DNA of 64,000 nt. Origin: Dehalococcoidia bacterium (GTDB lineage Bacteria > Chloroflexota > Dehalococcoidia > Lucifugimonadales > JAGWBF01). Below the pieces are notes generated by a model, which saw only the letters and a program-made list of their open reading frames with translations, was not told the origin of the DNA and did not search any database. Each line of letters begins with the position of its first letter. Within the stretch, counting starts at the first letter, position 1. Both the position numbers and the translations under genes were made by a program. The stretch lies in assembly GCA_965261965.1 (NCBI GenBank), contig OZ253489.1:2459618-2523617 (forward strand). The letters are read 5' to 3'. Shown here in pieces: positions 3,718 through 43,923 of the stretch.

Positions 3718-3720
3718 TGT

Positions 3721-4819: not shown

Positions 4820-4846
4820 GAACCGTTGTTCAATGATGTCGGGTTC

Positions 4847-5245: not shown

Positions 5246-5464
5246 GCTCTTGTTCCTTCTGGAGCAACGAAAAGACGGGGCACCGTTCGTTGCCGGTTGC
5301 GTCGAGTATACTTTAACTTTGTATGAAGAGTGTACTGATTACCCATTTTGCCGAGTTTGTCCTCAAACCCTCCCCAAGGTCGCTGCGAATGGGCGAAGCC
5401 GTGATAATACTGCTGACCACGGATCTTAAGGCGGCCTGTAGTGCTGTCCCGATCAGGGGTCGGC

Positions 5465-8661: not shown

Positions 8662-8925
8662 TTTACGCATACTTCTACAGGTCACATTTTACTTCTTCGC
8701 GGCGGTCCCCGACAACAAGAGGATGCTACCGCACTGGCTGCGACAGTTTCCCCCTGTGGGTGACGACCTACCGTCCCGCGCCGACCCCGGAGCTTCTGGC
8801 CTTCCCTTCTGTGCCGGTCGGCTTCCTTCATTTGACAGTCCCGGCTGCTGCGGGCTGACATATTTCTGCGGCATTTCATCGCTATTGTGAGTAGCGTCAG
8901 GAATATTCACGAAGGAAGCGCAACG

Positions 8926-27804: not shown

Positions 27805-29877
27805 TCAGACTCCATCAGCCTCCAACTGACACCCCTCCTCACGGAGACGTCGGAGGATTTCAATGGTTCTGAGGCTCTGCTTCTCAGATGGGACCTTAGC
27901 CGGCATCGAGATCGCTACATCTAGTATCCCTTGGTCATCCGGTGATAGGAATCCTCTAGACATTCCCCATGATTTGAGGTCACTCCAGAAAGCAGAACCA
28001 GCTTGGACCACGACCGTCTGAGCCTCAATCCCGTTCAGCATCCGCTGGTCTTTGACCGCACCTCTCTTCTCCTCATTCCGCTCGGCTGAACTGACCATCA
28101 TCCGTTGCAGTTCCCCGGGCCATTGCACAAGCAGTCCCATCACCCGATTCCAGCACGCCTGCTGCTTCGCCCACTCGGTCACGTTCCGCATACCATCTGG
28201 CGGATCGACGATCACGTCATGTACCGCCCTAGCTGCAACCACTAGGCTTCCCCGAAGTTCCAGGGAGATTCCCTGTTCCTGCCATATTCTCTCGAAGTTG
28301 ATTGATCGGCCACTCTGTGCCACGTCATGCGCGAGCTTGGCGATGGCATATGCTACGACGTTCGCCCGGTATCCGCCTTGGTACCAAGGCTGCTCCGTGA
28401 CCAGTCGCTCCACCGCCCTGAACACGATGGCCTTCGCAATCGCCTCTCGGTAGTACATCTCGTTGAAGTCGTTGGGGTGTCTGTTCCACTCCCCTCCAAT
28501 GAACGAGGCAAAGTCAGCAAAGTTCTTCTGTGCTCCCCTGCTCACGACCTCCGGTTTGTCATGCCAAACATTAAGAAACTTGGCGAGGTCCGTCTTGGTG
28601 AACATCTGTGCCTTCGGATATTCGAGGTCGAATCTTCTTCTCTCAGCCTGCGTGAGCCGACCCCGAGCGTCCTGATACTGACCCCGTGCCCGCTCGTAGA
28701 ACCACTTTGATTGTCGGAATGTTCCGTCCTTCGAGGGCGCGTACATTCTCGTAGAGAAGCCCTCGACCCTGATATGGAACGGGTGATTCGAGAAGAAGTC
28801 AGCCGCGCTGACGCGGTTCTGGGTGTTGGCATATTCCGATATCCTGGGGACGATCTCCATTGCCCTGTCTGGATTGACGATTGAGAGCTTCATCTGGACG
28901 AAAACCTTATCTAGGTCCGCCTCCTTGTTGCGAAGCGCCGCATGAATGGACGCCGTGGTCTGCCCTCCATTGACGATCTGAAAGTTGCGCATGCCGGTGA
29001 GGAGCAGGCCGTTAGGAGACTCCACGGTCTCGATGCTCTCTGCGGTGGCCGTAATGCCATTGTTGTAGGCGAAGAACATCTCCGGGTTGTTGTCAATCGT
29101 GTTCCTCAGCCCTCGATTGACATTCCCACGCGCCTGAAGGAACACGCGGACATTCTGTTCCAGCAAGCGGGCACCCCAGCGGCCATAAATCCTCGCGAGC
29201 TGATGCCCAGGAAAGACGGCGAGGTAGGACTCATAGTCGGTCTGCTGCATGTGCGCGGGCAGCACCAAGAGCGGGCCTCCGAACTCATTCAGGTTGACCA
29301 TGTAGTCCTCACGCTCATGCCCAGACGTGACGAAGCGGTGGAGGCGCCCCAAATCCCGTACGCTGTAGGTGACGGGGAGTCCTCGAAGTTGACCGGCCTC
29401 TCGGCCGTCCACCCTGGAGCTGAGCACCCTGTTGGTGACTAGGAACAGCCTCACCTTGGATACGGAAGGCCACCGTGCCGCGATGAGGTCGGCTAGGCCG
29501 AATGCGGGTGCCGATTCCTCCAAGCTGTTCCGAAATGCTTCATCCAGCGACCGGTCGAGAAAGTTGGACAGCCTCTTGAATGTTGCGTCCATGTTGGTCG
29601 CCGTCAGCGTTGCGATCTCCTGTGACTGGCTGAAGTCGGTGATGATCAGACTGAGCACCGCGTCGGAGTTGGCGGGGTCTCCACCATAGCCGTCAACTCG
29701 AATGCCCCGTGGGGAGACGTGGTGAACCCGGTCCGCCGTCTCAATCTCACCGGCATCTATCAGCGATTCCGTGAGTACATTGAAAAAGGCATCCTCCACG
29801 AACCTGCCCTCGGCATCGGCGAGGCTGTGAACCTCCTGAAAGAGTTCCTCGTGGTACTCTGCAATATCAATCGCCAT
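27805..29877 (-). CDS. AIPR-family protein
   Basis: 690 aa. It has the characteristic N-terminus (EYHEELFQEV...EDAFFNVLTE.L.D.GEI...) and an NGGQT motif (FQIVNGGQTTASIH). It is the last gene of the five-gene operon. Confidence 0.85.
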   Translation of the reverse strand: MAIDIAEYHEELFQEVHSLADAEGRFVEDAFFNVLTESLIDAGEIETADRVHHVSPRGIRVDGYGGDPANSDAVLSLIITDFSQSQEIATLTATNMDATFKRLSNFLDRSLDEAFRNSLEESAPAFGLADLIAARWPSVSKVRLFLVTNRVLSSRVDGREAGQLRGLPVTYSVRDLGRLHRFVTSGHEREDYMVNLNEFGGPLLVLPAHMQQTDYESYLAVFPGHQLARIYGRWGARLLEQNVRVFLQARGNVNRGLRNTIDNNPEMFFAYNNGITATAESIETVESPNGLLLTGMRNFQIVNGGQTTASIHAALRNKEADLDKVFVQMKLSIVNPDRAMEIVPRISEYANTQNRVSAADFFSNHPFHIRVEGFSTRMYAPSKDGTFRQSKWFYERARGQYQDARGRLTQAERRRFDLEYPKAQMFTKTDLAKFLNVWHDKPEVVSRGAQKNFADFASFIGGEWNRHPNDFNEMYYREAIAKAIVFRAVERLVTEQPWYQGGYRANVVAYAIAKLAHDVAQSGRSINFERIWQEQGISLELRGSLVVAARAVHDVIVDPPDGMRNVTEWAKQQACWNRVMGLLVQWPGELQRMMVSSAERNEEKRGAVKDQRMLNGIEAQTVVVQAGSAFWSDLKSWGMSRGFLSPDDQGILDVAISMPAKVPSEKQSLRTIEILRRLREEGCQLEADGV

Positions 29878-29883
29878 CGGAAC

Positions 29884-30876
29884 CTACCATCCTGCTAGGG
29901 CTTCGTTCAGAGCATCCACCGACGTTGCGAAAGGCTCGCAGTCGGCCAGCGAGACCGAGTACCGTACATTCGCGACACCCGATCGTATCTCGCCCGAAGT
30001 GATGCGAGGGAAGTTGCCAGTCACCCGATAGATGCGGCTCGCTCCCTCCAGCCAGCGGTTGCTGGAATAGTCGTCCTCCACCCTGTAGCCCGCCGCCGCC
30101 AGCCGCGTTTCGAGAATGCCGCATGAGCCTGGGTCGAGGGAGAAGAGGCGTCCGCGAATCCGCTCGGCCACGTCATGGAGGGTCACACCATGAGGGGCAT
30201 CCTCCGGGGACTCATCCAACTCCATCACATGTAGGAACAGCGAGTCAACGCCGCTCTCGTCCAGCTGATTCTCCGACGTGATTGAGACGGACGGCGTGGC
30301 TCCCCCGCGACGCGTCTTCGCCTCAATCGCAACCCGCGCAATCTCGAAGTCCTTGGGTGCACCCAACGGGCCGAGCCATGCCGTCACAGCAGATGAGGCA
30401 TCTATGCGGGGCAGTAGTAGACGCTCCAACACGAAGATCTCTCCGAGCAATCCCTTTTGTTCCTCCAGAGAGAGAAGGGTGCCACGCCCACCTCTGAGGA
30501 GATGGTGCCATCGCCATGTCCTCATCAGCGCATCAGACACCGCCCCAGCTTCGGACTCGGCCCGCGCGGCAGCAGAGATGATGTCCCGACAGAGGGTCTG
30601 GAAGATGTCCCGCTGGTTCGGGTCGAGCAGCTTGAATACGAGGAGTTGTGTGTCCGACTCATCGGGTGGGGACAGGGTCACCTCAATGTCACGCAGCCTT
30701 GGCAGGTGGGTGGTCGGTGCTGACCCTGTGGCGTGGCGCAGTGTGAGGAGAACGCTTCCGTCCACCCCCCGAGCCCAGAAGAAATCCCAGGGCAGGTTTG
30801 CGTCGACGCGACGAGCCGCGACCGAGTCGGCGATGCTGGGTGGGTCAATCTCCGCCCAAGGGTCTTCACCCATCAT
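29884..30876 (-). CDS. PD-(D/E)XK motif protein
   Basis: The start at 30876 (MMGEDPW) overlaps the Z1 stop by 11 nt. The nuclease-like core is GAPKDFEIARVAIEAKTRR. The ORF-track start at 30999 lies inside the Z1 gene. Confidence 0.75.
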   Translation of the reverse strand: MMGEDPWAEIDPPSIADSVAARRVDANLPWDFFWARGVDGSVLLTLRHATGSAPTTHLPRLRDIEVTLSPPDESDTQLLVFKLLDPNQRDIFQTLCRDIISAAARAESEAGAVSDALMRTWRWHHLLRGGRGTLLSLEEQKGLLGEIFVLERLLLPRIDASSAVTAWLGPLGAPKDFEIARVAIEAKTRRGGATPSVSITSENQLDESGVDSLFLHVMELDESPEDAPHGVTLHDVAERIRGRLFSLDPGSCGILETRLAAAGYRVEDDYSSNRWLEGASRIYRVTGNFPRITSGEIRSGVANVRYSVSLADCEPFATSVDALNEALAGW

Positions 30877-33586
30877 CGCCTCCCATCTCGTCCTCGTCGA
30901 CGTCCTCGCCGAAGTTCTCTCGGAGCCATGTCGTGTTGACCACGTACTCCACCCGCCGCTCCTCCCTGTTGGTTCGCGGAAAACTAATGCCCCATGCAAC
31001 CACTGGCTGTGTTGTGGGATCGCCTTGGCCCTCGGTATCTACGTTAATCAGGTGGACCATCAGAAGGGGCTTCGTCCTCACCTCTCTGTATGCCCGGTCC
31101 GGGTATTGGATCGGCCGGCCCTCGGCCGACCTGCCACTCCTCCCCGGATTCTCCCTGTACGTACGCTCCGCGCGCTCCCGCTCCTCACCGCTGAGGCCCG
31201 TTCGCTCGATCCCTCTGGTCGAGACCCTCTGCCGATTGCTGACCAAGAGGGTCCTCGCGTCGCTCCTCTTCCCGGCGGTTCTGTGCTGGCAACGAATAGT
31301 CCTACCAAGGGATTCGTCCGTTCGGTTGCCCTCACGTTGGCCCACGCTTGCGAAGAGCACGTCCCATTCCGCAAGCTCGTCGTCCTGGCGTTCCTCGATG
31401 TATCGCCTCACCGGTTCCCCGTTGGTCACCAACGAGCCATCGTGGTTTCGGAATTCAATCAGGAAGTCCAGTATGGGAGCCACCGGAACTCCCCGAAGAA
31501 GGAACCCGAAATTGTCCATCTCAGCAGCCTCAATGGGGAATCCGCTCTGACGGAGCCGGTGAGAGAGCCTCCGCGCGGCATTGCGGTCGACCTCCAAGCT
31601 CTCAGCATCCCTTCGAAGCGTGTGGGTCTCGATTAACCTGAACGCCAAGCCGATGCTCACCACTATCTGAGCTCCAGTTCCCATCTTATTGCGTGCGGTG
31701 ACGATCAGGGTATCCGGATGACTCCTGACCTTGAGTCCGAATTCCTCAGGTGTCGCATTGGAAGCCTCCATGCTCCTGAACTCACCTCGCAGTTCCTCAA
31801 TGGACTCTGCGACGTGCTCGTACCAACCCTCTGCCGCCTCCGGCATCCAGATGCGGCAGAGGTCCTGATAGTCCGGTCGATATCCGAACCACCGCCCCAT
31901 CTGCATCAATGTGTCGTACATCATGGAGTTGCGCAGAAAGTAGCTGACCATAAGTCCCTCGAGTGTCAGCCCACGGGACAGTGAGAAGCCGCCCACCGCT
32001 ATGACATTGAGACCGTCCTGCCGATTTCCGCTGTAGTCCAGCGTGCCAGGGGACTGAATGTTGACCTCGACCACCCTGATGGGAGAGGCGGCCTCATGCA
32101 GACGGCTCTGCACCTCAGCCCAATCGAACTCAGTGTCGCGGCACTCACGTTCCCAGACCGCGTGAAGTGCGTTGATCTCTGGGTCAAGGAGCGCTGTCTC
32201 CGGAGGCAGAGCCCCATTCACCCGAATGGAGCGTTGGATGCCATCAAGCTGCCCATGAATCTCATTGCGCAGTTGGCGCTGTACGTTCATGAAGCGGGAC
32301 GCGTTCACCAGCATTGAACAATGCTGTCGTTCGTGTCCTCTGGCGAGTCGAATGGCTCGGCCCAAGACGAAGGTCCTTACAGCATCGGTTAGGGATGGGG
32401 GGATGGAGGAGAGAACGATGTCCTTCTCATGTCTGATGGGAAGGTGGTCTTCGTTGTCCTCAATGGTGCGCATGTATTGGTCTCCGCCCTCAAGGAAGAC
32501 GGCGGTGGCTCCGAAGTAATTCGAGGGAGGATCAAGACTCACGATGAAACTGCGGGGGAACAGGTCCTCACCGCGCATCTGGTCGTCAGTGTCAGGGTCG
32601 ATGAAGATGTTGGCAAAGGGAGTGGCTGTGTATCCCAGGTAGCAACTTCTGCCGAACATGTGGAGGAGTTCGCGTATCTGTCCATTGATCCTTGAGACCT
32701 CGCCAGCTCCATGCCGGATGTTGATGGAGGCGTTGTCTGCTTCGTCATCGATCAGCAGCATCGGCTCATCAATGCTCTCGCCACCTCCCCGAGCGCTGTG
32801 CTCCCTGAGCCACTCGAGCAGATTCTTCAGCGTGCTGCTGTTCTTCTTGATCACGAACACGGCGGGCTCGGTGAGGTTCTGAAGGGGTATCCCGACGCCG
32901 GTTGCCGTCATCTTGTTAAAATCCCGGATGGTGTTGGTGAATGTGACCGGACGCCTCGTATGGTCGAATCGACCAACCCCCACGAACATGTCATCTTGCC
33001 TGCTCAGCAAGCGTGCGCTGTCCCGGCCCACGAAACCCTCGTCGATTCGTCGCTGTGTCTGGCTTCGCAGGTTGTTGTGGACACCCGCGATTACTACGAT
33101 CAACTTGTACCCTGCATCCGCGGCCTTGCATATAAGGCCCGCATAGTTGGCCGTCTTGCCCGATTGCACATGCCCAACAACCATCCCGCGCCTATCCCAA
33201 GGTCCATCCCTCAGAGGGTCCTGCATCAGTCCGAGCACACGTTCGGTGACGTCATCCAGCGTGTTGATCGCAGCGGTGGGAAACCCCTCTTGAATGAGGT
33301 GCTGTCTGTAGCGACTCCAGTAGTACGGATCTATCCGTGCCCTGGCAGCGTCCAGCCAGGGTTGGTGGTCACGCTTGATCAGAATGGAGCCGAGATGTTG
33401 GGTGATGCTCACACGTTCTTCGAACCGCTTTGCGAGCCTCTCCGCATCGTCCTCGGTGACACCCTCGAATATCGGCAACTGGCAGAGGTCCCCAATCAAC
33501 TTGCGGATATCCTCACCAGTCGGCCCCTGTTGATTGGCGAGAGCCGCGGCCACCATGCTTTCGAGGTTTGAGAGAGGGTCAGTCAT
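30866..33586 (-). CDS. Z1-domain P-loop NTPase
   Basis: 906 aa. Walker A is GHVQSGKTANYAGLI, followed by VIAGVHNNLRSQTQ. The Walker B-like motif is LLIDDEADNAS. Its start overlaps the upstream stop (ATGACTGA). Confidence 0.85.
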   Translation of the reverse strand: MTDPLSNLESMVAAALANQQGPTGEDIRKLIGDLCQLPIFEGVTEDDAERLAKRFEERVSITQHLGSILIKRDHQPWLDAARARIDPYYWSRYRQHLIQEGFPTAAINTLDDVTERVLGLMQDPLRDGPWDRRGMVVGHVQSGKTANYAGLICKAADAGYKLIVVIAGVHNNLRSQTQRRIDEGFVGRDSARLLSRQDDMFVGVGRFDHTRRPVTFTNTIRDFNKMTATGVGIPLQNLTEPAVFVIKKNSSTLKNLLEWLREHSARGGGESIDEPMLLIDDEADNASINIRHGAGEVSRINGQIRELLHMFGRSCYLGYTATPFANIFIDPDTDDQMRGEDLFPRSFIVSLDPPSNYFGATAVFLEGGDQYMRTIEDNEDHLPIRHEKDIVLSSIPPSLTDAVRTFVLGRAIRLARGHERQHCSMLVNASRFMNVQRQLRNEIHGQLDGIQRSIRVNGALPPETALLDPEINALHAVWERECRDTEFDWAEVQSRLHEAASPIRVVEVNIQSPGTLDYSGNRQDGLNVIAVGGFSLSRGLTLEGLMVSYFLRNSMMYDTLMQMGRWFGYRPDYQDLCRIWMPEAAEGWYEHVAESIEELRGEFRSMEASNATPEEFGLKVRSHPDTLIVTARNKMGTGAQIVVSIGLAFRLIETHTLRRDAESLEVDRNAARRLSHRLRQSGFPIEAAEMDNFGFLLRGVPVAPILDFLIEFRNHDGSLVTNGEPVRRYIEERQDDELAEWDVLFASVGQREGNRTDESLGRTIRCQHRTAGKRSDARTLLVSNRQRVSTRGIERTGLSGEERERAERTYRENPGRSGRSAEGRPIQYPDRAYREVRTKPLLMVHLINVDTEGQGDPTTQPVVAWGISFPRTNREERRVEYVVNTTWLRENFGEDVDEDEMGGDDG

Positions 33587-35060
33587 CCGGTAACTCCTCG
33601 TTGCAGTCTTCCTTCAGAATATGCTCCGTGCGCTCCCAGTTCGAGCGGAAAGGCTCCGCGACCCTCATCATGGTAAGCACGTCCTCGATTGACTTCATCC
33701 TTTTGCTGAGGTGAGTAAATGTCGTCACTGCTGCATAGCGCAGCGCCTGCTCCGAGGTAGCGCTGCCAACTACTGAGTCCACGTCGCCGCCGAGGTCGGA
33801 AAAGAGCGCATCCATCGGTAGCGACGCCCCTGCGACCTCAATTACTCTGCGGAGGTCGCCCCGTGCCTCTGGGGGCAATCTGGACAGAAGGTCAAGGACC
33901 ATTGGGTGCTCATCGTTGATTCGGTAGAATATCTGGTTCTTGTCCTGAATCCTGTTCCAGACGGGGATGTGGTTCTCCTTAATGAGCCTTCGGCCTCGGG
34001 TCCGGTAAACTCTCTTTGAATTTGCTGCCAGCGGCTCGATGATGCGGCGCAACCGTTCTCGAACCGGCGGTGGCAGCTGCGCAGATGCCTTCTTCACATC
34101 AATCTTCCAGGCTGCATCGAGCGCATTCGGCATATCGATGCGGACGCGCGCCAGCTTCGTGAGCTCCGTTTGACGCGCCAAGCCAAACCATGTGCCATGA
34201 ATGATCAACCGCCGCTCCCTGTACACGTAGAAACCCTGGTTCCTGAGATAGCCCTCCGGTCCTGCGTAGTGTTCCCATTCTGCGGGTGTGACCTTCCCAT
34301 GGTGCGGGAGGGTGAATGCCTGTACCAGCACGTCCTCATGTGCAACTCGAATTCGCTCCTTAGGGCCTGCAATCGTCGCTGAGTGGCTGGAATGGAAGGG
34401 ATCAAAGGGATCCAAGGACCGGTTGTTCATCTGAATGCTGACCCTACGGCGTCCCGGTTCACCGGAGAGGAAGCGATGGAATACCAGCTCTAGGTGGGAC
34501 CGGGCCTCATCCATCTGCCGCACAAAGTCAGTCATATTCCGACCGGAGTCTCCATCATCTGTTCCGAGGCCGAGTTCCTCCCAAACAACGAGTGTCCCAC
34601 TTGCTCCAAGAAACTCCGTCCAAGGGATGGATGTCAGGTCGTCAGGTATCTGGACTTGCCACCTGCCTGACTCGGCAATTCGGTCCAAGTCCCATCGGGC
34701 AATCGCGGTAGCTCCCTTGGTTCGCGTAACCACAGTGACTACACGGCATTGGGAAAATGAGGCCGTCTTCAAGCCTAGACCAAAACGGCCGAGATCGGAC
34801 TGCGCCCTTTCCTCCAAGGGGCTGCGGCTCCCCAGTCGCATTGCCTCTAGGAGTTCCTCTTCGGTCATCCCCACTCCGTCATCCAGAATGCCAATCTTCA
34901 AGTCGGGTGCTTCCAGACTTGCGAGTATCTGGATTGTCTCCGCCCGTGCCGCTATGCAGTTGTCCACGAGATCGGCAAGGGCGGTGCTCAGCGAGTATCC
35001 GATGGCCCGTATGCTTTCGATGAGTGGAGATGGCTTGGGTGGAATCTCAAGGACGCGCAT
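33579..35060 (-). CDS. GHKL-superfamily (MORC-like, HATPase_c_3) ATPase
   Basis: 493 aa. The N-box is ALADLVDNCIAA, G1 is LDDGVGMTEEEL and G2 is GRFGLGLKTAS. It overlaps the methyltransferase stop by 14 nt. Confidence 0.85.
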   Translation of the reverse strand: MRVLEIPPKPSPLIESIRAIGYSLSTALADLVDNCIAARAETIQILASLEAPDLKIGILDDGVGMTEEELLEAMRLGSRSPLEERAQSDLGRFGLGLKTASFSQCRVVTVVTRTKGATAIARWDLDRIAESGRWQVQIPDDLTSIPWTEFLGASGTLVVWEELGLGTDDGDSGRNMTDFVRQMDEARSHLELVFHRFLSGEPGRRRVSIQMNNRSLDPFDPFHSSHSATIAGPKERIRVAHEDVLVQAFTLPHHGKVTPAEWEHYAGPEGYLRNQGFYVYRERRLIIHGTWFGLARQTELTKLARVRIDMPNALDAAWKIDVKKASAQLPPPVRERLRRIIEPLAANSKRVYRTRGRRLIKENHIPVWNRIQDKNQIFYRINDEHPMVLDLLSRLPPEARGDLRRVIEVAGASLPMDALFSDLGGDVDSVVGSATSEQALRYAAVTTFTHLSKRMKSIEDVLTMMRVAEPFRSNWERTEHILKEDCNEELPDD

Positions 35061-36966
35061 TTATCACCCCAGTTCCCGTGGCACACGAGGCGCGAACGGG
35101 GCATTCATCGCACTTGGGAGCGCGGGCCGTACAGACCATCGCACCTAGGTCTAGCAGTGCCTGATTCCATTGCGCATCTGCTCCGCTGTGTCCAGCCAAT
35201 TCACGTAGGGAGAGCCTGAGCCGCCAGTTCGGTTGGTTGGAGCCACCCAACAGCCTACGAGCTATTCTCACGGTGTTTGTATCCATCAGGACGCTGGAGC
35301 GCCCGAAGGCGAAACAGAGCACAGCGGAAGCTATATAGTCTCCCACGCCTGGGATAGTGGTCAGTTCCTGCCAGTTGTCGGGAACCGTTCCTGCCAGCCT
35401 GTCCCTGACGAACTCCGCCGCAGAAACCAGATTCGCAGACCGCCAGTGGAGGCCGAGCGAGGCCAGCATCGGCGCCAGTCCTCTCCAGTTGCCCAAAAAT
35501 GAATCCGGGGTTTCACCAAGACTGAGGAGGTTGTCCGCGACCCGGGCCACTTGGTCAGCCCTTGTGCGGTGGAGGCACATTTCCAATAGCAGAATCTGCC
35601 AGGGGTTCAGATTGGGACGCCTCCACGGAAACTCCCGTTTGTTTTCCCTGAACCACCTGGCGAGGTCGTCTTGGAAGGATATCCCGTTCGCCGGTTGACG
35701 GCTGGTGGTCCCAGCATTGACCTCCCTGTCTTCGAGAGCATCTCTCACCGACGAGGCTATTGCTGAAGCGAGCAGAGGGGGAACAGCATTGCCTATCTGC
35801 TGATACCTGCTCGATGGGTGGCCCGCAAACCGGAATCTATCTGGGAAGGTCTGAATTCTGGCCGCCTCTCGTATGGAGAGGGTTCGGTCTTCCCTTGGGT
35901 GAATGTACCAATAACCATCCTTGGCTATATGGGCGGTGATGGTCCTTGACAGGCCATCGAAAGACAATCTCAGGTATTTGTCGTTGAAAATGTCTGACCG
36001 GTATCTTCGCAAGTGTTCCGGTACATCCAGATAGATGTCACCGGGTTTCAGCAATTTGTAGATTTCAGCATCGTCCGGTCGGACCGATCTCGTTACGTGG
36101 TCACGAACAAGCAGAGCTTCGGTGCCTCTTAGTCCTGTGCGTAACGATCTCGCAAGCGCCGAGGTCGGTGGTCCCTCATAGATCTGGGCCTCGTCTCGAA
36201 CACCTGCTTGCACTACCGGCAGGTCTCCGATAGCCTGTCCAACTGTAGGTCGCCTTCCTATGGGCTTAGGCCACTCGAACTCCCCATCCTCCGCGATTCC
36301 AATCACAAAGAGTCTCGACCTATGCTGCGGAACGCGGTACCTCCACGCCTCCAACACCTGTACGTGCACCCCATATCCCCTGCTCGACAGTTCGTCCATC
36401 AAAGCGATCAGCAATGCTCCTCCTTGTGCTTGAGCGAAGTTCGGAACGTTCTCGAAGAGCATTGCCCGCGGGTGCAGGCGGTCAACGACGGCAAAGAAAC
36501 TGCGCCAGAGGTCGGCTCTTTCGTCGCGCGGGCGTCGGCTCCCTCTCCTCACCAAGTCACCGATCTTTGAGGTGCCAGCCGTAGAGAATGGCTGGCATGG
36601 AGGGCCGCCTGCAAGAAGGTCTACGGTTTCGATGCCCCAATCGTCCAGCTGACAAAGGAACTCAGTGGGGCTGGAAAGGTCCCCGGTCCATGTTAGACCC
36701 TGAATGTTCGCAGCATGAGTCTCCATCGCCACGGGATCGGAATCGGCGGCGGCAACCACTGAGAACCCCGCCTTCTCAAGTCCCAGGCTCAATCCCCCGG
36801 CTCCACAGAAGAGATCTATGGCCCACGGGCGAGGTCTGCTCGCGAGCCACATGCGCACACCGGCATTGTCGTTCGGGTCGGGGGAACTGCAGTGAGGGTC
36901 AAGGCTGATACGCGGTCCACGACGGACCGCAACCCCGTACCGTGAATTGCGTTTGGTGCCATCCAT
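35047..36966 (-). CDS. DNA (cytosine-5) methyltransferase fused to a MutY/Mig-like HhH-GPD [4Fe-4S] glycosylase domain
   Basis: C5-MTase motifs are DLFCGAGG, GGPPCQPFS, FENV, QHRSRLF and QIGNAVPP (aa ~48-400). C-terminal aa ~431-639 carry the HhH IPGVGDYIASAV, the Asp in MDTN, and CX6CX2CX5C (C612, C619, C622, C628). Confidence 0.9.
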   Translation of the reverse strand: MDGTKRNSRYGVAVRRGPRISLDPHCSSPDPNDNAGVRMWLASRPRPWAIDLFCGAGGLSLGLEKAGFSVVAAADSDPVAMETHAANIQGLTWTGDLSSPTEFLCQLDDWGIETVDLLAGGPPCQPFSTAGTSKIGDLVRRGSRRPRDERADLWRSFFAVVDRLHPRAMLFENVPNFAQAQGGALLIALMDELSSRGYGVHVQVLEAWRYRVPQHRSRLFVIGIAEDGEFEWPKPIGRRPTVGQAIGDLPVVQAGVRDEAQIYEGPPTSALARSLRTGLRGTEALLVRDHVTRSVRPDDAEIYKLLKPGDIYLDVPEHLRRYRSDIFNDKYLRLSFDGLSRTITAHIAKDGYWYIHPREDRTLSIREAARIQTFPDRFRFAGHPSSRYQQIGNAVPPLLASAIASSVRDALEDREVNAGTTSRQPANGISFQDDLARWFRENKREFPWRRPNLNPWQILLLEMCLHRTRADQVARVADNLLSLGETPDSFLGNWRGLAPMLASLGLHWRSANLVSAAEFVRDRLAGTVPDNWQELTTIPGVGDYIASAVLCFAFGRSSVLMDTNTVRIARRLLGGSNQPNWRLRLSLRELAGHSGADAQWNQALLDLGAMVCTARAPKCDECPVRASCATGTGVINARP

Positions 36967-36995: not shown

Positions 36996-37442
36996 CTATA
37001 GAGGCGCGGACCACTCGCCAACCCAGTGGACATTCCCGGCGCTCTCTGCCGCCCGGTGAAATCTCTGGTCGGCGGTCCACAACTCACAGCCAAACTCCTC
37101 CGCCAGCGCCAAGTAGTGGGCATCGTACACCGCCCCTTGGCTGAGTTGACTCGCCAACTCTAGCGCCCTCACATGAAGACTTGGCGACTGGTGCAGTTCG
37201 AGCCGGGACCCGAGTAGCCGGGTCATCATGCGGGCGCTGTTGCCGACGCTCAACTGGCCGCGTGTCACCCTCCTGTGAAGGGCGTTAGCAACCTCGAATG
37301 GCATCAGGTAGGGGGCGATGCGAGTTACGTCATGGCTAACCCAAGATTCGAGAACCGCGTGGGCCTTGTCAGAGTCTTCCTCATCAACGAGCCACTTGAC
37401 GGCTAGACTCGCATCAACGACAACAACCCCGTTCATGCCCAT
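36996..37442 (-). CDS. vapC: PIN-domain toxin VapC
   Basis: 148 aa with the PIN pattern VVVDASLAVKW...E...YDAHYLALAEE....WTADQRF. It overlaps the antitoxin stop. Confidence 0.8.
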   Translation of the reverse strand: MGMNGVVVVDASLAVKWLVDEEDSDKAHAVLESWVSHDVTRIAPYLMPFEVANALHRRVTRGQLSVGNSARMMTRLLGSRLELHQSPSLHVRALELASQLSQGAVYDAHYLALAEEFGCELWTADQRFHRAAESAGNVHWVGEWSAPL

Positions 37443-37735
37443 GCCTCGGTTTCGGCATTCCGAAGCTCTCTGGCCTCCCTGATCAGGTCGGCAGAGTTAC
37501 CAGGCAGAGGCTTACCACCGAATATCTCCTGGCGGAGTTCTGCAAACATCTCATGGTCTGGCTTGTCAGCCAGCAGTTCGCCAGCGCCACCATACTCGTC
37601 CTTCGTCAACTCCCGGTCGATGGCGGCTTGGCAATACCCGCGCATGCTGACGCCCTTGAGCGCGGCGATAACCTTCAGCCGACGTTGAAAGGCGGGGTCC
37701 AAGTCCAAGGTGAGCCTTTTCTTCTTGGTTTCCAT
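37433..37735 (-). CDS. RHH/CopG-type antitoxin
   Basis: 100 aa. KKRLTLDLDPAFQRRLKVIAALKGVSMRGYCQAAI is a ribbon-helix-helix signature. The gene is paired with the PIN gene. Confidence 0.65.
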   Translation of the reverse strand: METKKKRLTLDLDPAFQRRLKVIAALKGVSMRGYCQAAIDRELTKDEYGGAGELLADKPDHEMFAELRQEIFGGKPLPGNSADLIREARELRNAETEAWA

Positions 37736-37901: not shown

Positions 37902-40032
37902 TTAGCGCCCCGCGCCGACCGGCTCCGTCTCCTGTTCCAGTGCCCACTCGAACATCGAAAGGGTGGCAGGCTGCGGCTTGCGGCCCCGGCCCTTGGGCTT
38001 GACCGGCTCGGCCATGAACTCCGCCCAGGAGAACAGCGACTGCTGCGGCTCCGGGTCCTCGTCGCGGTGGCCGTTCCCGTTGACCGGGGCAGGCGCATGG
38101 CTGTTGCCGTTGACGTGGTGGCCGTTGGTCAGCACTAGCTCGACCGTCGGCCCAATGCTGCCTGCGTGGTGACTGTTGCCGTTGACCGCGACGGCCTCCG
38201 GCTCTACCTCGACCGCCTTCCAGCCGTCATCCACGAGGTACTCCTCCGAAGCGGCCTCGGCGTCCCTGGCCTGGGCGAAGACCGACTCCACCGTCTCCGC
38301 CTCGTCTTCCTCCTCGTCGCCACTGACGATCCTGCGGGCCAGCGCCATCATCAGGTCGTCGCCGTCGTCGCCGTAGGCCGCCAGGCCGTCCTCCGGCAGT
38401 TCGCCCTCCACCGCCAGCGAGCTTTGCAGCTTCTTCGCCACCAGCTTGAGGGCGTCGGCCTGGAGGGTGTTCCGGTAGGACATGAACACCACCTTCACCG
38501 GGCGGGTCTGCCCGATGCGCCACGAGCGGCGGGACGCCTGCCGCATCACGTATACCGAGTAGTCGGTCTCGTACCAGCAGATGGTGGGGAAGTCGATGAG
38601 GTCGAGGCCGGTCTGCACCAACCTGGGGTGGCAGATGAGCACGTCGATGCCCTGCTTGACCTTATCCGCCACCCACGCCTCCCGGCGGTCCGGGGCCACG
38701 GCGTCGGCCTTCATCACCGCCACCCTGAACCCGTGCCGGGTGAGCATGTCGTCCATCCGCTCGGTGATGTCCCGCGTCCCGGTGTGGGTGGCGTAGACCA
38801 GCACCCGGCGGCCCTCCATGCGCTCGGCGGCCACGAGGTCGATGAGGGCCTTCTCCTTGGGATAGAGCTTGTCCTCATGCAGAGGAGGAACCTGGACTAT
38901 GACGTTGCCGCTCCGAGGGTCGAACACCGTCTCTCCCTTCGTGCACCCGTCAGGGTAGGCCAGCAGGGTTTGCAGGTAGGTCGCCAGCAGCCGCTTGGAA
39001 CCCTTCTTCAGGGCCTCGGCCAGCTCCCTCCGCAGCTCCTCGAACACGGTGTTGTAGGCGCTGCGCTGGGAGAACCCCGTCCCGTCCTCATCCGAGTCCA
39101 TCGAGGACAGCATTACCTGCTCCTCGTAAGGGGGCAGCCCGGAGGCCACGTCGGACAGGCGAAGGAAGACGGTGTTACCGATGAGGTGGAACAGCGCCGA
39201 GGGCACGAGGCCGGGCCGCTCCTTGACCACCTTGCGGTACTTCTTCCTGCGGCTGTACCTGCCATCCTCCGTCGAGTCGTCGTCGGGCTTGCCGACGGTG
39301 TGCTCCTCAAAGCCGTACCGCTGTATCCAGCGGCGCTCCTCCGACCGCCCGAACTCCGTCCTGATCTCCGGGCTGAACCTGTAGAGCAGGTGGAAGATGG
39401 TCGAGGAGTAGCCGCCAAGGAGGGTTCCCGTCAGGCTGAGGGACTTGCCGCAGACGTCGGCGAGGACGCCGGCGGCGATGCCCTGGGCCGAGCCGCGCCC
39501 CTTGTACTCGTGGATCTCGTCACCGACCAGCAGGTCGAAGAATCCCTTCATGTGGTGCTTCACGTAGTCGGCGAGGGGGTAGCGGGCGGGACCGGACCTG
39601 TCGGCCTGCCAGAGGGGAGCGCCGCAGTCGGGGCAGGTGTGCTTCCTGCGGTTCAGGTCCTCGTCGGTGAGGGGAACGCCGTCTTTGTCCACGATTTGCG
39701 CGGTGCAGGCGGGGCAGCAGGGGACCCGGAAGGGCTCCCCCGTCTCCTCGTCCCTCACCAGCCTGCCCTTGGACACGGCCCACCGCTCGATGACGGCGGG
39801 AATCCAGCGGTAGGACAGCTTGGCCTTCTCACGGCTCATCACCGCGAAGAGGGGGCCGGAGCCGACGGAGAAGCGCAGCCGCTCCAGGTCGGTGATGGAG
39901 CCGACGATGGCGGCGCGGGCGCCGGGCACCGTCTGCTCCACCTCCCGCTTCCACTTCTTGGTCAGGTGCGGCGGGCAGAGGATGAGAATCCTCTCGAAGC
40001 CCGCCATGTGCGCTGCTGCGGCGGCGAGTAAG
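37902..40032 (-). CDS. SNF2/DEAD-like helicase, exon 2 (3' of the group II intron)
   Basis: Motif II is VGDEIHEYKG, the zinc ribbon is CPAC...CPDC, and helicase-C motif VI is RQASRRSWRIGQ. The frame stays open upstream of the ORF-track Met (..LLAAAAAHMAGFERILILCPP) up to the intron 3' end. Confidence 0.8.
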
Positions 40033-40090
40033 GTAGGCCGCCGGCGAGTTACCCCGCGTTAGCGGGGCACTTTTCCGTCGGCCCCCTTCC

Positions 40091-40124
40091 GAACCGGACG
40101 TGCGGCTTTCACCGCATCCGGCTC
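40091..40124 (-). ncRNA. group II intron domain V
   Basis: The minus strand reads GAGCCGGAUGCGGUGAAAGCCGCACGUCCGGUUC: 34 nt with the AGC triad, a 2-nt bulge and a GAAA tetraloop. Confidence 0.85.
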
Positions 40125-40149
40125 TCCAGTGTCATTGTGGGTAGTGTCA

Positions 40150-40183
40150 GTAAAAGCAAGTACCGCGCCGGGTGGCGCGGTAC
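40150..40183 (-). terminator. intrinsic terminator after the intron-borne lipoprotein gene
   Basis: The minus strand reads GTACCGCGCC-ACCC-GGCGCGGTAC (10-bp perfect stem) followed by TTGCTTTTAC. It lies 26 nt after the stop at 40209. Confidence 0.5.
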
Positions 40184-40208
40184 GTTGTGGTTATGGGTCG
40201 TTAGGCAG

Positions 40209-40802
40209 CTAGGAACAACTGAGGACTTCCAGCACGGCGTCGTCAAACGCCTCAATCGCCCTGCCGAGTGTTGTGTAAGCTTCCTGCATCTCCGGGCCTT
40301 TGCGGTACTCGTTCCAAGCCTCTTCGTCCTCATACGACAGAGAACGATGTTCCTTTGCGAACCTCACTATCAGTTGGTCCAGCGCCACACTGGCCTCTAA
40401 GGAATCTCGAAGTTCCGCCGGGGGCTCGTTATTCTCAAGGAAGTCGATGACCTTCTGCACCCGGTCTGCCTTCTCGCCCCAGGTGGCTACCTCCTGTTCG
40501 GCGGCAACGAGAGCGCAAGCTGCCTCCATGTACTCCCGCGTCTCTCTGCTGATCCCTGTGCTCTCACCGACCTCCGCAGCCTCCGTAGGTTCGGGCGTCG
40601 GAGTGGACGCCGGGGGCGATGTTGCGGTTGAGGGGCTGCCAGTTGTGGCACCAGGGGTGCTGGTGCTGGACGAGCCGCCACAGGCGGTCAGGGCCAGGGT
40701 TAGCGCAGCCAAGCCAAGCAGCAGGACGAGGATGGGCCATTGACGGCCCTGGGCCTGCTGCGGGGAGCGTTGCCTATTCGTATGCTCAAATTCAGAAGTC
40801 AT
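40209..40802 (-). CDS. putative lipoprotein encoded inside the group II intron
   Basis: 197 aa with a signal peptide and lipobox (LALTLALTAC), a Ser/Thr/Pro linker and an alpha-helical acidic domain. GGGAGGA lies 7 nt before the ATG. It sits between the IEP stop and domain V. Confidence 0.65.
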   Translation of the reverse strand: MTSEFEHTNRQRSPQQAQGRQWPILVLLLGLAALTLALTACGGSSSTSTPGATTGSPSTATSPPASTPTPEPTEAAEVGESTGISRETREYMEAACALVAAEQEVATWGEKADRVQKVIDFLENNEPPAELRDSLEASVALDQLIVRFAKEHRSLSYEDEEAWNEYRKGPEMQEAYTTLGRAIEAFDDAVLEVLSCS

Positions 40803-40834
40803 GCGCCATCCTCCCTGTGCAGGGGTTAACTGGT

Positions 40835-40863
40835 ATTTTACCAGAGTACGGCGGAAATGTCAG
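40835..40863 (-). promoter_or_regulatory. sigma70-like promoter for the intron-borne lipoprotein
   Basis: The minus strand reads CTGACA - 17 nt - TAAAAT, with TGG just upstream of the -10 box. It ends ~32 nt upstream of the ATG at 40802. Confidence 0.45.
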
Positions 40864-40988
40864 TTACCAGAGCGTGAACTCTGGTGGGACTAACGGTATC
40901 CGTATCGTGACTATGTGCCTGCTGGGGAGAGCGTTGCTGGGGCCTCAGTCGTCTGAGTCGTGACACTACCTACTGTTGCTTGCGCGGA

Positions 40989-42797
40989 TTACTTGCGCCC
41001 GTGGTGGATGTCCATGTGACACGTCCGGCAGACCACGAGGGTCTTGCGCCGCCGCGCCGCCATGATTTGTACCCACCTGGGCTTTTCCCGTTGGCCTTTC
41101 ACGTTCAGGTCGCGAAGTGCGCGGATGTGGTGAACTTCTACGTCCACTGCCGACCCGCACATCTCGCACTCGTCCGCTTCGAGCCGTTTGATAAGCTCGT
41201 TGCGGCCGCTCCTGTACCGTTGGGGCTGTTGGTCTACGAGGACGGCCTGCCGTTGCCGTTTCAGGGGGATGCCACCGAAATATGCCACGCGAGGTGGCTT
41301 GCCGTTGTCCCGTTGCCTGACGACCTTGAGACAGACGCGCGGCCCGTGCTCGGTTTCCACGACGCTCTTGTACTGGCGTCGCATCTTCCGTGCGGTGGAC
41401 TTGTGCTTTGCCGCAAGGGTCCGTGTCAACGACATCTCCATGACCGATTGCAGTCGCCCGAAATGGGCGACGTTGGAGGCCAGGAGGTAGTAGTTGACGA
41501 CGCCCCGGAACTCCGACTGGTACTGTGCCACGATGGAGAAGTCTTCATCGTGGAGTAGGTAACTGCGGTGTGCCGGTTTGCCTTTGCGCATGTAGGCTTG
41601 GCAGTGTTGTTCGATGACGTTGGCGGGGACCCGCAATCCGATTTGGCCGTTGACCCTGCGCCGACCATTGCGGTCAAACTGGTCGTTGGCCTGTTGGTTC
41701 ACGAGTTCGTAGCCGAGGAACCGCGCCGCCTGGCTGGTGGCGTGGGTTATGAGAGTTTTCTCCTTGGATAGCTCCAGCTTGAGTGTGTCGCGCAGGAACG
41801 TCTCCAAGGACTCTTTCACCTGTTGGGCTTCGACCTTTGGCCCGATGAAACCCAGCACGAAGTCGTCCGCGTAGCGCACGTACCGTAACCGGCGGTAGCC
41901 GGGGTCGTAGGGGTCACGTGATGGCAGTTGTTGCATTTGCTTGCGCAGTTGCAGTGCCTCGGCGTGGTTCCCCCGCTTCCTCTGGCGGGCCGCTTGGTTC
42001 AGCAACCGTGTGTACTCGCGGTTGTCTCTCCGCTCTGTGCCTCGGGTGTGGGCTGGTATCAGCACGTTCTCGACAAACTTGTCCAACCGGTCTAGGTAGA
42101 TGTTGGCGAGGAGAGGGCTGACGATGCCGCCTTGCGGTGTCCCGCTCAGCGTGCGACCGTATTGCCAATCCTCAACGTAGCCTGCTTTCAGTAGGTACTT
42201 GAGCAGGCGTAGGAATCGGTTGTCGTGGAGTTTCTCGCCGAGCACCGACAACATGACCTCGTGGTCGATGTTGTCGAAGCACCCTTTGATGTCGCCCTCG
42301 ACGAACCAGCGGACACCAGACCAGTAGTCCACCACGTTGCTCAAGGCGGTGTGGCAACCCCGGTCGGGCCGAAAGCCGTGGGAGCGGTCGGAAAACTGCG
42401 GCTCGTAGTAGGCTTCCAGAATCATCCGGATGACCTCTTGCAACAGCTTGTCCGGCCCAGTTGGTATGCCCAAGGCGCGGGTCGTGCCGTTAGGCTTGGG
42501 AATGTTGACCCGTCGCACCGGCGTCCACCGGAACCGCTCGTAGCGCAAGGCTTCGATGATGCGGTCGATTTTCGCCAGTGACATACCATCCATGGTCTCT
42601 GCGGTGACGCCTTTGGTCGTAGCCCCCTGGTTTGAGTAGATACGACCGTAGGCCCGCAGGTAAAGGTTCCGGTTGTACAGCAGCCGATAGATGTTCTCCA
42701 GCGGCAATCCTCGTTCTCCGCGTTCGCGTATGACGTTCAGTACAGTTTCGGCGTTTTGCATTCTGCATACCTCTCTGTGTTTGTTCGTCGTTGACAC
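40989..42797 (-). CDS. group II intron reverse transcriptase/maturase with HNH endonuclease domain
   Basis: 602 aa. RT blocks include RRVNIPKPNGTTRALGIPTGPDKLLQEV, HGFRPDRGCHTAL and YVRYADDFVLGF. Maturase X is present. The C-terminal HNH is CEMCGS...HHI...CRTCHMDIHHG. Confidence 0.95.
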   Translation of the reverse strand: MSTTNKHREVCRMQNAETVLNVIRERGERGLPLENIYRLLYNRNLYLRAYGRIYSNQGATTKGVTAETMDGMSLAKIDRIIEALRYERFRWTPVRRVNIPKPNGTTRALGIPTGPDKLLQEVIRMILEAYYEPQFSDRSHGFRPDRGCHTALSNVVDYWSGVRWFVEGDIKGCFDNIDHEVMLSVLGEKLHDNRFLRLLKYLLKAGYVEDWQYGRTLSGTPQGGIVSPLLANIYLDRLDKFVENVLIPAHTRGTERRDNREYTRLLNQAARQRKRGNHAEALQLRKQMQQLPSRDPYDPGYRRLRYVRYADDFVLGFIGPKVEAQQVKESLETFLRDTLKLELSKEKTLITHATSQAARFLGYELVNQQANDQFDRNGRRRVNGQIGLRVPANVIEQHCQAYMRKGKPAHRSYLLHDEDFSIVAQYQSEFRGVVNYYLLASNVAHFGRLQSVMEMSLTRTLAAKHKSTARKMRRQYKSVVETEHGPRVCLKVVRQRDNGKPPRVAYFGGIPLKRQRQAVLVDQQPQRYRSGRNELIKRLEADECEMCGSAVDVEVHHIRALRDLNVKGQREKPRWVQIMAARRRKTLVVCRTCHMDIHHGRK

Positions 42798-43271
42798 CTG
42801 TCCTCCTTCGCCATGTGCCGGGCTTTCCCCGGCTCGGACTACTATGAGGACTCCGTGACCATAGGGGTCTCCCCCCGTAGGCCATCCCGCGTTCCGTTGA
42901 CATAGGACGTTCTAGCGCGACTGTAGGTGCCCCGTTCGTTCCCTTGAATTGACCGCATCGGTCATCGTCCACTCATCGGAGTTGCATTGGTACCTTCATC
43001 GTACCGAGGCAATGAGTGGCGCCGGGTTACAAGCGTTCTACCGGCGGGTGGCAAGAACACCAACTGGGAACTGGGGTTCAGGCAGTCTAGCTTTCACCGT
43101 ATCGCGCGGGCCTTGCGGAACCAGTCCTACAACGCTTTGGGACTGTAGCCGCTTTACCGACATGCTGTTGTCCCCCTAGGCTTTCGCTTCGAGGTAGGTC
43201 GGTTGGCCCAAGAACTTTCTCCGAGTTCTTCCTAGCTGAGCTAGGTATCCTATGCCGCGTAACGCGGCGCA

Positions 43272-43498
43272 CTGAAGGTCTTGCCGGTGCCCATCTCGCC
43301 AACGACGGTGGTGCCCCGGTGGGCTTCGAGGGAGAGGGCCGCGCCCCGTATGGCGTCCTCCTGCGCCCCCAAGGGCTTGCGGAGCAGGCGGGGGAGCTTG
43401 TGGCCGTTCTCCGAGGGCCGGTAGAGGGGCGGGTAGGACTCCACCACCCGCCGGGCGATGGCCTCCTTGAACGTGTCGATGAATCCTCCGAGGTTCAT
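43272..43498 (-). CDS. SNF2/DEAD-like helicase, exon 1
   Basis: It encodes MNLGGFIDTF...TTVVGEMGTGKTF (Walker A). AAGGAG lies before the ATG. The ORF-track tail SAPRYAA* is read-through into the intron. Confidence 0.8.
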
Positions 43499-43543
43499 GT
43501 CTTTCTCCTTTTATTAGAGTGTGCTTGGGGTTGGGCGATAGGC

Positions 43544-43580
43544 GAGGCCCCGCGGTCCCTCATGGGAACAACGGGGCCTC
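43544..43580 (-). repeat. intergenic GC hairpin, family member 1
   Basis: GAGGCCCCG - 19 nt - CGGGGCCTC, read directly. A second small hairpin, CGGCTCA-GGC-TGAGCCG, follows. Confidence 0.6.
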
Positions 43581-43605
43581 GTGGATGCGGCTCAGGCTGA
43601 GCCGT

Positions 43606-43800
43606 CTATGCGGCGTTGGGGAGGCGCTCCCGCCGCTTCACGTCGTCGTAGCAGCGGCCCCGGAGGTGGTAGGACTTCACCGGGGAGGAGACCGCCCTGC
43701 CGCCGATGATGTCCACCGATGCGGTCTGCATGGCGGGTTCGCCGGGGGCGATGGGCTGCCCGCACCGGGCGCAGGCTTCGAGGGTCATGGTCGTCTGCAT
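43606..43800 (-). CDS. small hypothetical protein (CxxC)
   Basis: 64 aa (LEACARCGQPI...). It is flanked on both sides by family hairpins in the operon. Confidence 0.4.
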   Translation of the reverse strand: MQTTMTLEACARCGQPIAPGEPAMQTASVDIIGGRAVSSPVKSYHLRGRCYDDVKRRERLPNAA

Positions 43801-43853
43801 CTTTGTTGCCTCTCTTTCCTTAGTGAGGGTGTTGCGTTCGGTCGAGACGAAGC

Positions 43854-43894
43854 GAGGCCCCGCCGGTTCCCGATAGGGGGAATGACGGGGCCTC
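43854..43894 (-). repeat. intergenic GC hairpin, family member 2
   Basis: GAGGCCCCG - 23 nt (loop contains CCCGATAGGGGG) - CGGGGCCTC. Confidence 0.6.
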
Positions 43895-43923
43895 GTGATG
43901 CGGCCCGGAGTGAGCCGTCTGAG

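Follow-up and report, generated by a model that had tools for sequence, protein, structure and literature searches.

T:G mismatches that arise by deamination of 5-methylcytosine at the sites of a cognate methylase are corrected by Vsr (PF03852), a nicking endonuclease of short-patch repair that is usually encoded by a separate, often divergently transcribed gene. A second enzyme, the T/U:G mismatch glycosylase Mig.MthI (PDB 1KEA), comes from the Methanothermobacter plasmid pFV1, where it belongs to a simple Type II restriction-modification (R-M) system and has a gene of its own that lies beside that of the M.MthTI C5-methyltransferase. We analysed a gene in a 64,000-nucleotide stretch of contig OZ253489.1 from a Dehalococcoidia bacterium (Chloroflexota), hereafter called the window, in which a C5-methyltransferase (Dcm) and a Mig-like glycosylase are joined in one polypeptide at the head of an MZA-like multi-gene module.

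The C-terminal domain of this protein resembles Mig.MthI in its HhH-GPD region with a [4Fe-4S] loop, its size (∼210 aa), the absence of the MutY C-terminal domain and its genetic linkage to a C5-methyltransferase. Catalytic Glu and Asp residues, and the Tyr instead of Lys in the HhH motif that would make the enzyme monofunctional, are also common to both. It differs from Mig.MthI in being fused to the C-terminus of the methylase and in its setting (Chloroflexota and an MZA-like module rather than an archaeal plasmid and a Type II R-M system); the identity between the two is only ∼30%, and the activity of the present domain is a predicted one. Vsr has the same predicted job and, in sister Z1-type operons, the same niche beside dcm (58/80), but its fold and chemistry are unrelated, and the domain in the window is predicted to be an N-glycosylase feeding base-excision repair. 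MutY shares with this domain the catalytic-domain architecture, the cluster loop and the catalytic Glu, Asp and Asn, and is equally similar to it in sequence; however, it is the product of a housekeeping gene and has a C-terminal domain for 8-oxoguanine (8-oxoG) that is absent here. In the END nucleases (PMC12191111), a domain of the HhH/EndoIII superfamily is likewise fused to another DNA enzyme in a defence context, but it is catalytically dead and senses hypermodified bases for the nuclease, whereas in the window the catalytic residues are kept and the partner is a methylase.

Among anti-phage systems, MzaABCDE has been validated, and its MzaD is a nuclease; Miller et al. 2022 (PMC9523054), who cite Gao et al. 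2020 for the system, describe MzaA as a sigma factor. The same authors describe Dcm together with Z1 and DUF4420 proteins (and with AIPR and MORC) as a putative 'type II' system, and a glycosylase domain on the methylase is mentioned in neither paper. In the window, the fused gene heads a co-directional operon that continues with genes for a GHKL ATPase, a Z1 protein, a DUF4420 protein and an AIPR protein. These downstream genes are MzaB-, MzaC-, MzaD- and AIPR/MzaE-like and have the same order as in the described systems; however, MzaA is not present in the window operon, and the Dcm-glycosylase takes the leading place. We therefore class the operon with the Dcm-bearing MZA-like systems, the type II of Miller et al. 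2022, whose Dcm-containing architecture it matches, rather than with MzaABCDE.

The components of the fused protein, as well as the partnership of dcm with Mig or Vsr, are already known. What appears to be undescribed in the literature that we searched is the fusion as a large conserved clade, its existence in both domain orders and the exclusion of Vsr within the MZA-like family. We did not find a described Dcm-glycosylase fusion in that literature, subscription-journal reviews of the comparative genomics of DNA methylation lying outside the search.

The fused gene and its two domains

The fused gene occupies 35047..36966 on the minus strand and encodes 639 aa plus the stop codon, as judged from the list of open reading frames (ORFs), the translation and the domain matches. 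Residues 1-414 (35725..36966, minus strand) form the Dcm domain, which was delimited by PF00145, TIGR00675, Foldseek and the methylase motifs. A linker of residues 415-426 follows (35689..35724, minus strand), with a predicted local distance difference test (pLDDT) score of <50 and unconserved in the alignments. Residues 427-639 (35050..35688, minus strand) form the HhH-GPD [4Fe-4S] glycosylase domain, which is Mig.MthI-like by PDB sequence and profile searches and by its pocket residues. Three features of this domain, all on the minus strand, had been pointed out in the original prediction, made from the sequence for the interval 35050-35676: an HhH motif devoid of Lys at the EndoIII lyase position, a catalytic Asp in the context MDTN, and a CX6CX2CX5C cluster loop. 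All three are present. The HhH motif IPGVGDYIASAV (residues 538-549, 35320..35355) carries Tyr544 at the position of Mig Y126 and EndoIII K120. The codon of the predicted catalytic Asp562, identified by the motif (residues 561-564) and by alignment to MutY and Mig.MthI, lies at 35281..35283, and the iron-sulfur cluster loop CTARAPKCDECPVRASC (residues 612-628, C612-X6-C619-X2-C622-X5-C628; 35083..35133) has its four cysteines at exactly the residues named and is also matched by PF10576. The interval itself was exact, as residue 431 begins at base 35676 and the final codon ends at 35050. To these features we add the predicted catalytic Glu462 in LEMCLHRT.

By its motifs the fused protein is a complete C5-methyltransferase joined to a glycosylase with every expected motif. 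In the methylase half, motif I (FCGAGG) stands at residue 53, IV (PPCQPFS, with the catalytic Cys124) at 122, VI (ENV) at 172, VIII (QHRSRL) at 214, IX (REAARIQTFPD) at 366 and X (GNAVPP) at 392, the target-recognition region lying between VIII and IX; Cys124 is kept in 60/60 full-length relatives. The Pfam family DNA_methylase (PF00145) covers residues 50-407 (E=1.6e-57), the NCBIfam model TIGR00675 (dcm) scores over its cutoff (E=9e-52), and a Foldseek search of the full-length model against the PDB places DNMT1, MET1, M.HaeIII and 3g7u on top for this half.

A single-sequence AlphaFold2 prediction of the full protein reached a pLDDT of 36 and was replaced by an alignment-based model with a mean pLDDT of 84.5 and a predicted template modelling score (pTM) of 0.83. 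Confidence in this model is low only for the catalytic loop of Dcm, the linker 415-426 and the termini, and the glycosylase region is all-alpha with pLDDT mostly >90. The linker is variable, at ∼12-24 aa, and the stretch corresponding to residues 407-431 spans 23-27 aa among relatives.

We searched the PDB with the C-terminal 215 aa alone. The MutY catalytic domain of G. stearothermophilus (3.5e-28) and Mig.MthI 1kea (7e-28) were matched practically end to end (residues 6-206 of 215), followed by E. coli MutY (1e-21) and EndoIII (∼1e-13). With a profile of 29 family members, Mig.MthI 1kea came first (2e-55, 209/221 positions), tied with G. stearothermophilus MutY, and EndoIII reached 2e-32. 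The Pfam families EndIII_4Fe-2S (PF10576, residues 612-628, over cutoff) and HHH were also matched, and Pfam HhH-GPD was found in 19/29 family members. The NCBIfam model mutY (TIGR01084) covers residues 431-630 with E=9e-35, at 120.5 bits against an equivalog cutoff of 286.5. The protein ends 11 residues past the last cysteine (Cys628), without the NUDIX-like C-terminal domain with which MutY recognizes 8-oxoG. The sequence matches, which are far too strong for chance, thus place this half in the MutY/Mig [4Fe-4S] branch of the HhH-GPD superfamily; the assignment made in the original prediction held, both in the end-to-end alignment with solved enzymes and in the confident model.

Residues that tell Mig.MthI from MutY, and the role of Mig.MthI, have been described (PMC2714593). 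At these positions F446 corresponds to F27 of Mig.MthI and L22 of E. coli MutY (F or Y in 83/88 family members), R467 to R47 and Q42 (R in 84/88), A470 to A50 and V45 (A in 81/88), and Y544 to Y126 and S120 (Y in 88/88); a Tyr at the position of EndoIII K120 occurs in G. stearothermophilus MutY as well (PMC2714593). Three of the four thymine-pocket positions of Mig (F27, R47, A50 and L187) are therefore Mig-like in the window (F446, R467 and A470). The best reading of these pocket residues is a domain of the Mig.MthI rather than the MutY kind. The original prediction had left the two together as 'MutY/Mig-like'; judged by the specificity residues, the domain is closer to Mig than to MutY.

Glu462 is conserved in 88/88 family members, Asp562 and Asn564 each in 87/88, and none of the four cluster cysteines varies within the fused clade (38/38). 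This conservation favours an active enzyme over a degenerate sensor domain, and the C-terminal domain is most likely an active, monofunctional glycosylase of the Mig.MthI type, as far as its residues tell. We also considered excision of 5-methylcytosine itself. DEMETER/ROS1-like enzymes are bifunctional and have a catalytic Lys; the idea was set aside in view of the Tyr at the Lys position, and excision of the enzyme's own product would be futile. As a separate observation, His takes the place of the second cluster cysteine (C-X6-H-X2-C-X5-C) in 7/50 unfused members (L148, L151, L159 and L166 among them) and in the protein P0267, so that variant Fe-S ligation may occur in the family.

It is almost certain that the fusion is neither an artefact of assembly or frameshift nor one part of a naturally split methylase, although some observations could be read in that way. 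The matches of our first search with the C-terminal 215 aa were all 180-377 aa long, and many relatives of 320-377 aa begin within the Dcm target-recognition region (residues ∼265-310). Broken copies of the fused gene exist as well: two are frameshifted (L002 and L003), one carries an insertion sequence (IS) element at residue 319 (L005), one has a single in-frame TAG (L008), and one (L001; ENA ERZ19489113, a 2.5-Mb contig) is N-terminally shortened to 352 aa, comprising Dcm residues ∼269 onward and the glycosylase. However, the frameshifted copies come from low-coverage long-read contigs, and the window ORF has no internal stop, frameshift or long homopolymer at the domain junction. Two pairs of loci on independent short-read contigs (L006/L007 and L009/L010, 53% identity to the window) hold a single open frame of ∼640-648 aa over both domains, as checked by tblastn and by direct translation. 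Because the full frame is open in these short-read assemblies, the short database proteins are gene-caller truncations, and a natural split methylase or a programmed frameshift was ruled out. Moreover, a full-length search gave >120 clusters of full-length proteins (635-680 aa, 70-85% identity), many of which lie on contigs of megabase size, and the fusion is intact in L011-L015, L025 and L032 and in complete chromosomes among Dehalococcoidia metagenome-assembled genomes. The covalent fusion proposed in the original prediction is thus real, with no stop between the domains in the independent short-read assemblies, and the sequences gathered here indicate that it is common beyond the window, as a large clade, and has arisen more than once.

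Public gene calls for this high-GC fused gene are systematically too short (P0003-P0120 and P0268; L006-L010). The database entry for the window's own protein has 581 aa instead of 639 aa, and a homologue, MYC30718.1 (NCBI), bears only the name 'DNA (cytosine-5-)-methyltransferase [Chloroflexota bacterium]'. Surveys of architecture that start from predicted proteins will therefore under-count the fusion. In L009, the gene calls include a spurious antisense ORF of 224 aa that covers the Dcm N-terminus. The shortened copy of L001 has an HNH_2 gene as its neighbour, and its surroundings are Druantia-like, with DruA and a 1843-aa helicase resembling DruE; this copy may be what remains of the fused gene, or else a glycosylase that was kept when the methylase was lost. 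IS elements break the dcm and Z1 genes in L005.

Vsr and the glycosylase beside dcm

We surveyed 80 loci from species-representative genomes of many phyla, which were retrieved with a Z1 alignment and annotated by homology to the window proteins and with a Vsr hidden Markov model (HMM; 49 loci, seed confirmed as PF03852). The loci nearest to the window showed 86% Z1 identity, in keeping with a Dehalococcoidia/Chloroflexota source. Beside dcm, Vsr was present in 58 loci, the glycosylase in 9, both in none and neither in 13, of which 3 were truncated and without dcm. The 9 glycosylase loci consisted of 7 with a fused gene (five from Dehalococcoidia, one from Ca. Aldehydirespiratoraceae and one from Ca. 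Dormibacteria) and 2 with a separate adjacent gene. The Vsr HMM found no match in the 64-kb window, in L001-L010 or in any glycosylase-bearing Z1-type locus. The exclusivity gave p=2e-6 in Fisher's exact test, uncorrected for shared ancestry. Because the two are mutually exclusive beside dcm in Z1-type loci, we concluded from gene content that the glycosylase occupies the niche of Vsr in the MZA-like loci. This is the pattern that a Vsr-equivalent predicts, and it lends support to the suggestion of the original prediction that T:G repair might be tied to the modifying enzyme. Near the dcm genes, the ORF cluster that ranked second in size (33 loci) consisted of low-complexity sequence that looked antisense, and was taken as spurious.

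One metagenome contig (L111, Ga0181520_10009350) carries the fusion at 2338-4365 and also a much larger Dcm-containing ORF at 7490-9949 with Vsr nearby (11568-12065). Therefore, a single genome can contain both repair solutions, each of which seems to have a methylase of its own.

We also surveyed from the glycosylase side, using the 80 nearest relatives in metagenome contigs (33-53% identity). Fused Dcm-glycosylase genes accounted for 29 of these loci, separate genes in the order dcm-glycosylase for 37 and in the order glycosylase-dcm for 4; the rest were 7 uninformative loci with the glycosylase at a contig edge and 3 in which it was internal and without an adjacent dcm. Thus dcm is fused or adjacent in 70/73 informative loci. 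The separate dcm-then-glycosylase genes often overlap by 4-14 nt, a hallmark of translational coupling. Z1 is absent from 33 of the 37 separate pairs, and genes for Z1, ATPase or AIPR are lacking around most unfused pairs; on one plasmid the glycosylase lies in an ordinary Type II R-M cassette with an endonuclease of the MvaI/BcnI family. Therefore, the family is linked to the methylase and not to the MZA-like effector genes.

In a neighbour-joining tree, the C-terminal fusions of the window's type form one clade nested among two-gene cassettes, with a bootstrap of 62% that rises to 73% on inclusion of the sister locus L018. Two other fusions branch elsewhere, near Mig.MthI: P0253 (Dcm-glycosylase, 37% identity) and P0267, in which the order is glycosylase-Dcm, as confirmed by Pfam. 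Because opposite domain orders both exist, the sequences imply that the fusion arose at least twice, and by the tree it probably arose three times. A 641-aa Dcm-glycosylase fusion of 36% identity (WP_338438709.1, annotated only as DNA cytosine methyltransferase) is encoded at 3895-5820 of plasmid pIITB6_1 of Synechococcus elongatus IITB6 (L171). It comes last in an operon of four genes, the others encoding two hypothetical proteins and a DUF6339 protein, and an Abi-family gene adjoins; this setting is unlike that of the MZA-like loci, and another defence system may here employ the same fused methylase.

A predicted repair role and its alternatives

We think it likely, on the sequence evidence taken together, that the protein is a bifunctional enzyme in which a Dcm is combined with a Mig-type T:G/U:G repair module that replaces Vsr, and that the module is not a defence effector. 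In the host chromosome, the Dcm domain would methylate its recognition sites at cytosine C5, and the MZA-like restriction module encoded downstream (GHKL ATPase, Z1, DUF4420 nuclease and AIPR) would presumably take this methylation as a mark of self. Deamination of 5-methylcytosine to thymine would give T:G mismatches, which would be fixed as C-to-T mutations at the protected sites. The C-terminal domain is predicted to act on T (and U) mispaired with G, flipping the base out and excising it by means of Asp562 and Glu462, with the [4Fe-4S] loop binding the DNA. The abasic site would be left for the base-excision repair of the host, which would restore C:G, and the enzyme would be a functional equivalent of Vsr, replaced in this branch of the system. 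The fusion itself probably originated by loss of the stop codon in a translationally coupled dcm-glycosylase pair; it would secure 1:1 co-inheritance and co-expression and possibly co-localization at the methylase's own target sequence. We infer the substrate (T:G and U:G), the self-marking role of Dcm and any targeting benefit of the covalent linkage.

Several points weigh against this reading. The specificity for T:G and U:G is deduced from few pocket residues, overall sequence puts the domain at equal distances from Mig and MutY, and Gln602 of the window is the MutY state (Q182; L187 in Mig.MthI). All 50 matches in the Foldseek listing were methyltransferases, and the fold likeness of the glycosylase half rests on the sequence and profile searches and the model. 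The exclusivity statistic ignores phylogenetic non-independence, and the 7 fused loci come from few related lineages. Finally, a repair partner, Vsr or the glycosylase, lies beside a MutL-like ATPase in 67/80 loci, and its role could thus be integrated with defence rather than being pure housekeeping repair.

Some of these points would suit a MutY-type adenine glycosylase acting on A:G and A:8-oxoG, or a general HhH-GPD repair enzyme, unconnected with 5-methylcytosine deamination. The likeness to MutY catalytic domains is as high as that to Mig, mutY is the top NCBIfam glycosylase match, and wild-type Mig.MthI is itself weakly active on A:G (PMC2714593). We nevertheless hold such an enzyme to be very improbable. 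Ala470 in place of Val45, Arg467 in place of Gln and the aromatic residue at 446 in place of Leu are family-wide, whereas most members have Tyr, Leu or Phe at position 602; because Gln is limited to the window and its closest relatives, Gln602 is a local, derived state. The absence of the 8-oxoG-recognition domain and a score far under the MutY equivalog cutoff also stand against MutY, and a housekeeping MutY would be expected to show neither the linkage to dcm nor the exclusion of Vsr. The 67/80 loci, on the other hand, would suit a glycosylase domain that is itself part of the defence, namely a base-excising effector or a sensor of foreign or modified bases in phage DNA; the lesions that it made or recognized would then be processed by the DUF4420 nuclease, Z1 and AIPR. 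HhH-GPD/EndoIII domains do serve as modified-base sensors in the END nucleases (PMC12191111). The fused gene is translationally coupled to the MutL/MORC-like ATPase, whose start overlaps its end by 14 nt, and an ATPase gene lies directly 3' of 22/29 fused genes. E. coli Vsr physically interacts with MutL (PMC2715241), and a repair enzyme and a MutL-like ATPase could form a unit. A defence role was also the alternative offered in the original prediction, and we regard it as quite improbable: the sensor domains of END nucleases are inactivated, whereas the catalytic residues are fully conserved here; the glycosylase is interchangeable with Vsr, a dedicated T:G repair nuclease; its linkage to dcm is nearly universal outside Z1 operons, as in the pairs without Z1 and the Type II R-M cassette; and canonical MzaABCDE defends without methylase, Vsr or glycosylase.

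Within the repair reading, the covalent link might be mechanistically meaningful beyond co-expression, which we consider unlikely and which could take two forms. C5-methylases bind T:G and U:G at the target base unusually tightly and can block repair. By a hand-off, the target recognition and base flipping of Dcm would find the deaminated sites and pass the lesion to the tethered glycosylase, and the protein, if this were true, would be a natural sequence-programmed mismatch glycosylase. Alternatively, the Vsr or glycosylase module would work with the adjacent MutL/MORC-like ATPase, as Vsr does with MutL, and would be integral to self/non-self discrimination by the Z1-DUF4420-AIPR machinery. 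The pTM of the two-domain model hints at a defined inter-domain geometry.

The MZA-like operon and the meaning of the fusion

All genes of the operon lie on the minus strand. The MzaB-like GHKL/MORC-type ATPase (493 aa, 33579..35060) was assigned by PF13589 (E=2.9e-33), NCBIfam MzaB (E=3e-97) and PADLOC MzaB (E=1.9e-76), and the MzaC-like Z1-domain protein (906 aa, 30866..33586) by PF10593 (E=1.5e-80), NCBIfam MzaC (E=2.6e-171) and PADLOC MzaC (E=1.4e-147). The MzaD-like PD-(D/E)XK protein with DUF4420 (29884..30999; PF14390, E=5.8e-66; NCBIfam MzaD, E=3e-37) probably has its true start downstream of the listed TTG. The AIPR (MzaE-like) protein of 690 aa (27805..29877) matches PF10592 (E=2.5e-101) and PF22879 (E=1.1e-38). 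The MzaB-, MzaC- and MzaD-like proteins are all far below the equivalog cutoffs (326/850, 572/1500 and 128/420 bits). Among related loci the gene order is permuted in L032, L102, L118, L008 and L004, where ATPase, Z1, DUF4420 and AIPR precede the Dcm-glycosylase and a second GHKL ATPase often comes after it; in L009/L010 and L096, two ATPase genes stand in tandem and AIPR is missing.

Directly upstream of the fused gene and co-directional with it lie genes for a toxin of 148 aa with a PIN domain and for a small antitoxin of 100 aa that resembles ParD/RHH (36996-37735, minus strand), in whose place L002 and L003 have an HTH_17/AlpA-like gene. Farther upstream, at 37902-44964 (minus strand), a large methyltransferase-helicase gene seems to be split by a group II intron. 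The reverse transcriptase/maturase/HNH ORF of the intron lies at 40989-42797 and its domain V/VI at 40028-40126 (Rfam Intron_gpII, 65.5 bits); just downstream of the intron there is a SNF2-like helicase ORF (37902-40007) that has Helicase_C but is without the N-terminal ATPase motifs, and upstream of it a DUF6094/N6-methyltransferase-like ORF (43924-44964). On the other side, just past the AIPR gene, an IS transposase (DDE_Tnp_1_4, 441 aa) is encoded at 25887-27212 (plus strand), and the same family flanks the operon of L003. The IS elements at the window, L003 and L005 suggest that the island is mobile and frequently decaying. A 1740-aa surface protein with fn3, cadherin and Big domains, followed by a PKD-domain protein, is encoded at 19448-25488 (plus strand); a 1741-aa gene without a Pfam match also adjoins the homologous operon of L004, which may be shared synteny.

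Public annotation names these proteins only as 'DNA cytosine methyltransferase', so that the glycosylase half is invisible to most surveys, and the genes are often called short. A cultured, tractable host carries a homologue on the Synechococcus elongatus plasmid, and a sequence-tethered T:G glycosylase might also be attractive as a reagent. The fusion in both orders is Rosetta-stone evidence that links a large unannotated family of small HhH-GPD proteins to the repair of 5-methylcytosine deamination in bacteria, a link that to our knowledge has so far rested essentially on one archaeal plasmid enzyme. The loci also offer a natural example of non-orthologous replacement, in which the unrelated Vsr nuclease and Mig-type glycosylase fill one slot beside the methylase in a single family of defence systems. 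This replacement argues that MZA-like systems really methylate the host genome and pay the mutational price.

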